From: Candidatus Hydrogenedens sp.
Lineage (GTDB): Bacteria > Hydrogenedentota > Hydrogenedentia > Hydrogenedentales > Hydrogenedentaceae
Reading direction: 5' to 3'
Assembly: GCA_035378955.1 (NCBI GenBank)
Contig: DAOSUS010000008.1
Location: forward strand, 6,668-70,667
Length of the DNA stretch: 64,000 nucleotides
Part shown: in pieces, positions 42,793-43,472 of the stretch
How positions within the stretch are numbered: the stretch's first letter is position 1
How the letters are laid out: each line of letters opens with the position of its first letter
The notes under the pieces: generated by a model
What the model saw: only the letters and a program-made list of their open reading frames with translations
Database searches by the model: none
What the model was told of the DNA's origin: nothing
Made by a program: the position numbers and the translations under genes

Positions 42793-42890
42793 ATCATTTT
42801 CCTTTTATATAATGTTTTTTTCTTAGACTTCAATATTACGAAATGACTTTTTAAATTATCAAATTTAGAAAAAAACAATCATTCATAGGA

Positions 42891-42931
42891 ACAATAAAAA
42901 AGCACAGGTCACATCAAAATGTGACCTGCGC
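42891..42931 (-). terminator. rho-independent terminator for the small AKKA-peptide gene
   Basis: Minus-strand hairpin GCGCAGGTCACAT-TTTG-ATGTGACCTGTGC (12-13 bp GC-containing stem) followed by TTTTTATTGTT. Confidence 0.55.
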
Positions 42932-42959
42932 TTGAAAGAGTAGTAACTATTGTCCTACT

Positions 42960-43055
42960 TTACTTTTTGCATCCTGCTTTCTTTGCAGGAGCCTTCTTTG
43001 CGGCGGCTTTCTTCGCAGGAGCCTTCTTTGCAGCGGCCTTCTTTGCTGTAGCCAT
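42960..43055 (-). CDS. 31-aa lysine/alanine-rich basic peptide (MATAKKAAAKKAPAKKAAAKKAPAKKAGCKK), histone-H1/HU-tail-like repeats
   Basis: Found by hand. There is an AAGGAGA RBS 6 nt upstream of the ATG. Two near-perfect 30-nt tandem repeats encode AKKA/PAKK units. Lys is encoded mostly by AAG despite the AT-rich genome. The gene has its own terminator and is flanked by ~600 bp of AT-rich non-coding DNA. Confidence 0.5.
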   Translation of the reverse strand: MATAKKAAAKKAPAKKAAAKKAPAKKAGCKK

Positions 43056-43101
43056 TTCCATTCTCCTTTTTATTAGTTTACATAAATTGTAAGTTGCCCA
43101 G

Positions 43102-43131
43102 GGTATACACAACTTTTATATTGTGTATACC
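43102..43131. promoter_or_regulatory. 11-bp perfect inverted repeat GGTATACACAA-N8-TTGTGTATACC upstream of the AKKA-peptide gene
   Basis: Seen directly. It is centred ~60 nt upstream of the ATG at 43055 and no T-tract follows it on either strand, so it is a candidate operator or 5'-UTR stem-loop rather than a terminator. Confidence 0.35.
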
Positions 43132-43472
43132 GATAATATTTATACTACATATAGATACCCTTTGTCAACATAATTTATACTATTCATTAAATACTTTTAT
43201 TTTTATATAAAATTATTATTTTATCTATGTTCATTTTTTTCATTAATTCAATTCAAAAACAGTTTTATTTATATTTTCTTGAATATCAATAACTTATGAA
43301 ATCAAATTTTCTATCACATATAAATTTTATTTTTTGAAAAAGATATAAAATAAGTTATAAGAAAAACTTATAGAGATTATAAGAAATATTTATATAATTT
43401 TTTAGAGGAATAAAATAAAAAACCAATCAAAAATAGTAAAAAACTGATGATAATTAATTATAGTCTGAAAAA

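Follow-up and report, generated by a model that had tools for sequence, protein, structure and literature searches.

The locus considered here raises the question of whether a tiny, low-complexity open reading frame (ORF) is a functional gene and, if so, what its product might do. The ORF lies on the minus strand of a 64 kb stretch of DNA from Candidatus Hydrogenedens (Hydrogenedentota, formerly NKB19); this whole stretch is called the window below, and the ORF together with its expression signals, the micro-gene. The first-pass annotation had described a stand-alone gene for a 31-residue basic AKKA/PAKK peptide with a consensus ribosome-binding site, its own terminator and, upstream, a palindrome proposed as an operator. 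The ORF proved to be exactly as quoted there: 31 codons running from the ATG at 43055-43053 to the TAA at 42962-42960 (coding sequence with the stop, 42960..43055, minus strand) encode the peptide MATAKKAAAKKAPAKKAAAKKAPAKKAGCKK, as established by translation, by the substitution pattern in orthologs and by gene callers, which called the micro-gene on three public assemblies.

The peptide consists of 13 Ala, 12 Lys and 2 Pro (27 of the 31 residues in all) plus one residue each of Met, Thr, Gly and Cys; it has no acidic residue, a net charge of about +12, and five AKKA motifs. At the DNA level the ORF is a 30-nt tandem repeat in 2.6 copies, which corresponds at the protein level to 2.5 AKKAAAKKAP decapeptides, and when all six frames of the window are considered, this ORF contains the only Lys/Ala-rich stretch. 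The start codon is preceded by the Shine–Dalgarno (SD) sequence AAAGGAGA at 43062-43069, with a spacing of 7 nt between GGAG and ATG. Its AAGGAG core, which is the consensus expected from the first-pass annotation, belongs to the strongest SD class in the window and is present at approximately 10 of the 43 long ORFs. There is a second in-frame ATG two codons upstream of the start, situated 1 nt from the SD and unlikely to be used as a start.

Orthologs were gathered by an exact-peptide look-up, a genome scan and one metagenome pattern scan, yielding 13 orthologous loci including the window, which collapse to 10 distinct sequences (loci are designated below by L and a number). The exact peptide is not in a collection of approximately 15 billion proteins, and a word-indexed homolog search with the 50-residue upstream-extended ORF returned two proteins. 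If the ORF is translated, changes between orthologs should be mostly synonymous, the comparison that the first-pass annotation had itself proposed, and this is what we observed: over all orthologs there are 18 distinct synonymous and 4 non-synonymous changes in the sense frame, and the peptide is identical in 6 of the 10 distinct sequences, while the ATG, the SD and the TAA are invariant. Non-synonymous changes are found in L007, which has A4E, and in L008, where the C-terminus is altered to TAGKK, and the sole change of length is an in-frame AAA (Lys) codon inserted in L005. The peptide is 100% conserved in L049 and L053. In the latter, 10 of the 93 coding positions differ from the window, all ten being third positions and synonymous; the neighbouring proteins of L053 are approximately 78% (EEP), 78% (TauE) and 93% (acyl-CoA synthetase) identical to those of the window, and the HAD protein of L049 is 83% identical to its counterpart.

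The strand of the gene is also given by its terminator. The intrinsic terminator at 42894..42933 (minus strand) comprises a 15-pair stem (42933-42900) with a 4-nt loop and, after it, a T run, and is supported both by a terminator scan, which gave 4 terminator-like sites against 0.2 expected, and by covariation. Across the ten sequences 98.7% of cells of the stem are paired, compared with 22-58% in slid controls, and three pairs have compensatory double changes. Several G-U wobbles pair on the minus-strand RNA only, since the other strand would give C-A mismatches. Thus, the strand is settled independently of the coding test, and the terminator proposed at 42891-42931 is real, with a slightly shifted placement. 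It is separated from the stop codon by a short 3' untranslated region (UTR) of moderate conservation (42934..42959, minus strand; identity 0.78). Taken together, the synonymous bias, the in-frame insertion and the strand evidence mean that the micro-gene, so far unannotated, codes for protein on the minus strand and that strong purifying selection acts on it.

The conserved unit is wider than the coding sequence. Column identity over nine orthologs rises abruptly from approximately 0.5-0.6 to 0.84-0.99 at 43247 and collapses at 42894, and these sharp edges define a conserved unit of 355 bp. It includes a promoter on the minus strand with a -35 box TTGACA (43163..43168) and, at N18 from it, a -10 box TATAAA(T) (43139..43144), TAGTATAAAT, both invariant in all orthologs; our promoter scan missed the -10 box because it demands T at the sixth position of the hexamer. 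From this promoter, transcription would be predicted to start at approximately 43134-43131. The rest of the 5' UTR (43056..43101, minus strand), A/U-rich and including the SD, has 95-99% column identity.

Abutting the -35 box on its upstream side is an 80-bp AT-rich block (43169..43247, minus strand) with an identity of 0.84-0.94, as high as that of the coding sequence; it is probably a DNA-level element, such as an UP-element-like or activator-binding region. The block holds two TTAATGAA repeats approximately 57 nt apart. It also contains an 18-codon ORF-like stretch (43243-43187, MKKMNIDKIIILYKNKSI) that has no SD and in which ortholog differences are mostly non-synonymous.

A promoter-like element TTGATA-N18-TAATAT is located at 42833-42862 (minus strand), between the terminator of the micro-gene and the EEP gene downstream; it is conserved, and has the same N18 spacing as the micro-gene promoter. 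Given the terminator and the separate promoter of the EEP gene, the micro-gene constitutes a monocistronic unit, whose transcript would measure about 240 nt. Together with the coding constraint, a promoter, an SD and a terminator of its own bear out the stand-alone gene of the first-pass annotation, as does the measured upstream spacer, described there as some 400 bp of AT-rich DNA: 417 bp with 12-23% GC separate the micro-gene from the preceding acyl-CoA synthetase gene. Within the poorly conserved part of this spacer, at 43362-43383 (minus strand), CTTATA-N5-TATAAG is followed by TTTTT, appearing as CTTAT-N7-ATAAG-TTTTT in most orthologs; this element may serve the acyl-CoA synthetase gene as a weak AT-only terminator, or else be a binding site.

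The palindrome GGTATACACAA-N8-TTGTGTATACC (43102..43131, minus strand), with an 11-bp stem and an 8-nt loop, is indeed present, occurring once in the window and in 0 of 100 shuffles. Its interpretation as an upstream operator was not borne out, as it sits downstream of the conserved -35 and -10 boxes, beginning 7 nt after the -10 box in every ortholog and thus covering approximately +1 to +30 of the predicted transcript. Placed at such a distance from the -10 box, it would occupy the initial 30 nt of the mRNA. Its RNA form has a folding energy of -16 kcal/mol (z = -6.9), and all eight sequence variants fold, at -11.6 to -16 kcal/mol. In five orthologs a C is inserted in the 5' arm, where it is accommodated as a bulge and shifts the spacing of the half-sites by 1 bp; in L049 and L053 the inserted C is re-paired through a GUG-to-UGG change in the 3' arm. 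The L008 hairpin has a U-G wobble, and that of L007, one A-C mismatch. A second small hairpin of the 5' UTR (UUACA/UGUAA) is not kept in L049 or L053.

If the palindrome were instead a DNA operator overlapping +1, a dimeric repressor binding to GGTATAC-N16-GTATACC would silence the micro-gene. An inverted repeat of 11 perfectly matched bp that occurs once in the window would suit such a protein, as would its place beside the -10 box, typical of repressor operators; GGTATAC and GTATACC, the outer half-sites, hardly vary, and since the changes in the arms are not clean compensatory pairs, it could be the sequence and not the pairing that is conserved. The insertions point the other way: a 1-bp shift of the half-sites is less tolerable for a dimeric DNA-binding protein than for a hairpin, and it has occurred in five orthologs with the RNA hairpin retained, while the change in L008 gives a U-G pair on RNA but breaks the symmetry of the DNA. 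The search for a regulon, as suggested by the first-pass annotation, revealed no second copy of the palindrome or of a half-site in the window or at the non-orthologous positions of the fetched loci (approximately 64 kb plus fragments of relatives), nor does any regulator gene adjoin the micro-gene. The retention of the hairpin despite the changed spacing, together with the lack of other copies, makes a 5'-terminal stem-loop likelier than a regulon operator, and we regard a repressor site here as unlikely, albeit with an appreciable probability.

The most likely role of the palindrome is that of a 5'-terminal mRNA stem-loop shielding the transcript from 5'-end-dependent decay, although the roles of hairpin and operator are not mutually exclusive and could coexist. 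Stem-loops at the 5' end are an established means of stabilising mRNA (Emory, Bouvet and Belasco 1992; Bouvet and Belasco 1992; both cited in PMC3997798). The predicted arrangement resembles the leaders of Escherichia coli ompA and papA, where a stable hairpin at the extreme 5' end precedes an A/U-rich leader and a strong SD, with the difference that the transcription start of the micro-gene is a predicted one.

The codon usage had been considered AAG-biased, atypically GC-rich and, hence, suggestive of high expression. The bias is real, AAG accounting for 9 of the 12 Lys codons, whereas its share in the window's remaining genes is 23% (p = 2e-4). The claim about composition holds in part: the GC content at third codon positions (GC3), 48% vs 27%, is the only unusual value, whereas the overall GC content of the ORF, 51%, is mostly an effect of Ala and Pro, as approximately 49% is estimated from its amino acids with the host codon usage. 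None of the six Lys-Lys pairs in the micro-gene is encoded by AAA-AAA, compared with 56% of such pairs elsewhere in the window, and AAA-AAA pairs are likewise absent from 9 of the 10 ortholog variants. Ribosomes slide on runs of AAA codons, with a loss of protein output (PMC4363877). Thus, in a gene with six Lys-Lys pairs the avoidance of A runs explains the AAG bias at least as well as high expression does, and the bias is not by itself a sign of the latter. In L053, GC3 is raised to 0.61 despite a genome of 36% GC and saturating synonymous divergence; G/C-ending codons are hence maintained or increased, which indicates selection and not a fading foreign signature.

As for the product, its composition is H1-tail-like, in agreement with the first-pass annotation, and the best family matches are HC2, hist_H1_lk_Burk and Rv3852, all of them far below the respective cut-offs. 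The best Pfam match is HC2 (PF07382; 15.7 bits, E = 0.017, gathering threshold 40); among NCBIfam models, the Rv3852 family NF050153 yields 20.3 bits (cut-off 100), hist_H1_lk_Burk NF038053, 18 bits (cut-off 80), and chlamydial Hc2 NF038052, 13.8 bits (cut-off 135). An exhaustive HMMER search of 1.84 billion representatives returned 25 weak matches with the best E = 2.4e-7, nearly all of which are AKKA tails of long unrelated proteins. The low complexity of the sequence means that homology cannot be established, and by its scores the peptide belongs to none of the defined families. At the same time, it has the features by which AKKA/PAKKA modules are defined (PMC10665949), that is, several close motifs, dominance of Lys, Ala and Pro, and a strongly basic character, and it is an unusually small, strictly conserved example of this known H1-like kind.

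Several characterised systems share these features. In mycobacterial HbhA, the fragment 161-199 (39 residues with five AKKA repeats, the same number of motifs as in the window peptide) has been reported to be necessary and sufficient for DNA binding, and the AKKA/PAKKA motif also underlies DNA binding by HupB and Rv3852 (PMC10665949); in these proteins, however, the motifs form tails on folded or coiled-coil domains, whereas the window peptide is the tail alone. Chlamydial Hc2 (HctB) has Lys/Ala-rich pentamer repeats and a DNA-condensing, H1-like composition, but it is 165-237 residues long with a variable number of repeats (PMC2848022) and comes from another phylum with other regulation. In Pseudomonas AlgP and PhaF, disordered Lys/Pro/Ala repeats serve both to bind DNA and to organise granules of polyphosphate or polyhydroxyalkanoate; KPAA-repeat peptides of AlgP bind DNA, and its repeat domain organises polyphosphate granules (PMC9239181). 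They differ in the repeat unit, KPAA, and in that the 154-residue repeat domain is joined to an N-terminal helical domain.

A precedent for a very small basic bacterial peptide is given by ScvA and Hq1 of Coxiella burnetii, both described as small basic DNA-binding proteins (PMC4766238). Along with eukaryotic protamines and the C-terminal domain of histone H1, they compact DNA by charge neutralisation and have no sequence relationship to the window peptide. ScvA, of about 30 residues, is rich in Arg and Gln and is not an AKKA repeat; another difference from Coxiella is that no developmental cycle is known in Hydrogenedens. A search of the literature on chromatin proteins of Hydrogenedentes gave nothing relevant. 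By analogy with these systems, the peptide would be expected to bind DNA or another polyanion.

The explanation of the whole locus that we favour, with moderate confidence, is a stabilised monocistronic transcript encoding a minimal polycation, similar to an H1 tail or a protamine, that would bind nucleic acid. The sigma-70-type promoter and the conserved AT-rich block would give rise to a transcript of approximately 240 nt starting at, or within about 3 nt of, the 11-bp stem-loop, and this hairpin would act as a shield against 5'-end-dependent RNases, extending the half-life of the mRNA. The AAGGAG SD would provide for efficient initiation, and the lack of AAA-AAA at Lys-Lys pairs, for less ribosome sliding and slippage, while the strong intrinsic terminator would end the transcript ahead of the next gene, itself separately promoted. 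The product, 31 residues long, with a charge of about +12 and presumably disordered, would bind nucleic acid electrostatically and without sequence specificity, the most probable target being nucleoid DNA, whose charge it would neutralise and which it would compact or shield. High expression is suggested by the expression signals.

Several observations weigh against this explanation. The -10 box TATAAA lacks the usual final T, and the transcription start is a prediction; no clean double compensatory substitution was found in the hairpin among the orthologs; and the HC2, hist_H1_lk_Burk and Rv3852 scores are all far below the cut-offs. Moreover, H1-like repeat proteins usually drift in the number of repeats (Hc2, 165-237 residues, PMC2848022; proteins of Burkholderiales, 127-176 residues), whereas the length and the sequence of the window peptide are fixed, and fixation of this kind across the genus may mean that the peptide has a more specific partner, for instance polyphosphate, the ribosome or a defined RNA.

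If the true partner were another polyanion, the peptide would be a ribosome-associated micro-protein (like bTHX, bS22 and bL37), an RNA chaperone or a polyphosphate-granule protein similar to AlgP. A length and sequence as strictly conserved as these would be more usual in a component that occupies a fixed binding site; an AKKA-bearing ribosomal protein, RplV, has been reported in Mycobacterium tuberculosis (PMC10665949), and the Lys/Pro/Ala repeat domain of AlgP provides a parallel for granules (PMC9239181). The gene neighbourhood, comprising genes for acyl-CoA synthetase, TauE, EEP and HAD proteins, is in contrast neither ribosomal nor related to polyphosphate. Furthermore, the known tiny ribosomal proteins are Arg/Lys-rich, and none of them is known to be an A/K/P repeat. 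We therefore consider a partner of this kind improbable, if worth keeping in mind.

A more specific version, in which the peptide is an abundant polycation of fixed length with a dedicated partner, seems quite unlikely to us. It could then be an unrecognised micro-protein bound to the ribosome or to RNA, or a protamine-like nucleoid condenser cross-linkable via its Cys, and it might even bind its own 5' hairpin in a feedback loop. If true, this would explain why a low-complexity repeat is frozen across the genus, and why the promoter and the UTRs are more conserved than the wobble positions. The Cys near the C-terminus of the window peptide is reminiscent of protamine cross-linking. In L008:3742-3837, AGCKK is replaced by TAGKK at the C-terminus and the only cysteine is lost. 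Its loss in one Hydrogenedens lineage means that the Cys is not indispensable, and weighs against an obligatory role in disulfide formation or modification.

The origin of the micro-gene is a separate matter, since it might be derived by truncation from a horizontally acquired H1-like gene of the Burkholderiales type, an origin that would also account for the G/C-ending codons. The metagenome scan yielded ten high-GC loci (62-68% GC, against 35% for Hydrogenedens) encoding proteins of 127-176 residues that match NF038053 at 101.5 bits. Like the window peptide, these hist_H1_lk_Burk (BpH1-type) proteins are stand-alone and consist entirely of Lys/Ala/Pro repeats; their first 16 residues (MATAKKAAAKKAPAKK) are identical to it, and so are the SD, spacer and start AGGAGAATGGAAATG (43053-43067 in the window vs L004:601-615 and the nine other high-GC loci). 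They differ in the greater length, the variable number of repeats, and the position of the gene after nrdB with an SD-sequestering leader; in addition, the full-length ones, e.g. L046, L047, L050-L052, L054, L056 and L057, have a conserved C-terminal QTTLNPQAAWPFPTASKP tail, whereas the window peptide ends in AGCKK and has no such tail.

The shared N-terminus must be read with the search in mind, as these loci were found by a pattern that itself required this identity. The coding identity between the window and the high-GC loci, 59-64 of 78 positions, is no higher than that of an unrelated control gene, L045 (64 of 78), and we found no similarity upstream of the SD. The control implies that the coding identity is what shared amino acids impose, an explanation that does not cover the identity of the 7-nt spacer. 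The same N-terminus also occurs in a phage protein of 101 residues (L061:2438-2484, minus strand; IMG/VR UViG_3300027759_000115), in which MATAKKAAAKKAPAKK at the start gives way to a region without repeats that is probably a coiled coil; hence, this basic N-terminal module recurs independently on unrelated proteins. Finally, the G/C-ending codons in L053, kept or enriched in a 36% GC genome, argue for selection. The common origin with the Burkholderiales H1-like genes is thus a suggestive but weak lead, and truncation after horizontal transfer appears doubtful.

The NF038053 genes of the high-GC loci (L046:5922-6121, minus strand; L004:416-615; L047, L050-L052, L054-L057 and L060) are situated downstream of nrdB with a leader of approximately 170 nt. 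This leader forms three to four hairpins, with compensatory changes in six pairs, and matches no Rfam family at the gathering score. In its last hairpin CUUCUUU pairs with the AGGAGAA Shine–Dalgarno sequence, so that it looks like a translational control element or a thermometer.

It is very improbable that the conserved unit represents a small non-coding RNA, or that the plus-strand ORF at 42967-43092 is the one that codes, the AKKA frame being incidental. The UTRs are as conserved as the ORF, which would suit an RNA; an Rfam scan at a permissive threshold, however, gave no credible match, the best being L20_leader with 25.4 bits against a gathering score of 58.7, and none at all on the 5' hairpin. 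The antisense ORF (41 residues with FFA repeats, FFAGAFFAAAFF...) mirrors the AKKA repeats, with which it has the wobble positions in common, and with 15 synonymous and 7 non-synonymous changes it also looks constrained, passing the naive coding test. The sense frame gives the better fit (18 vs 4) and its ATG is served by an optimal SD, whereas the antisense ORF starts with TTG, has no SD and loses its stop in three orthologs, and the promoter, the T run of the terminator and the G-U wobbles all belong to the minus strand. We reject this ORF as a coding frame, given the missing SD, the non-conserved stop and the terminator on the other strand. Such a frame is a trap for automated callers of small ORFs, as the shared wobble positions mimic coding constraint.

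A Lys/Ala-rich leader peptide with an attenuator governing read-through into the EEP and HAD genes, to which a short ORF with 12 Lys codons and a strong terminator 26 nt further on gives a superficial likeness to the his, trp and leu leaders, is scarcely credible and can be discarded, as there is no conserved antiterminator (the predicted partner of the 5' arm of the terminator differs in every ortholog), non-Lys residues are equally conserved, and the EEP gene has its own conserved promoter and encodes a secreted EEP-family enzyme, which does not belong to a lysine or alanine pathway.

The genomic context is the same throughout, the order TauE / acyl-CoA synthetase / micro-gene / EEP / HAD being kept at all orthologous loci. 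The neighbours encode an acyl-CoA synthetase, TauE, a secreted EEP-family enzyme and a HAD hydrolase; no regulator gene is adjacent, and there are no ribosomal or polyphosphate genes around. The EEP-family protein downstream of the micro-gene identified the organism as Candidatus Hydrogenedens, the closest genome being that of Ca. H. terephthalaticus.

The window peptide is the shortest stand-alone H1-tail-like peptide found in this analysis, and its expression cassette is unusually well conserved. Genes below the usual length limits of annotation are systematically missed, and the micro-gene is a clean worked example of the validation of such an ORF by comparative data alone, including the pitfall of antisense wobble positions. 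If its abundance is in keeping with the expression signals, the peptide would be a major polycation of the uncultured candidate phylum Hydrogenedentota. Among the stand-alone proteins of H1-tail-like type described, it would also be the smallest, and it would offer a natural minimal model for the binding and compaction of nucleic acids by AKKA repeats.

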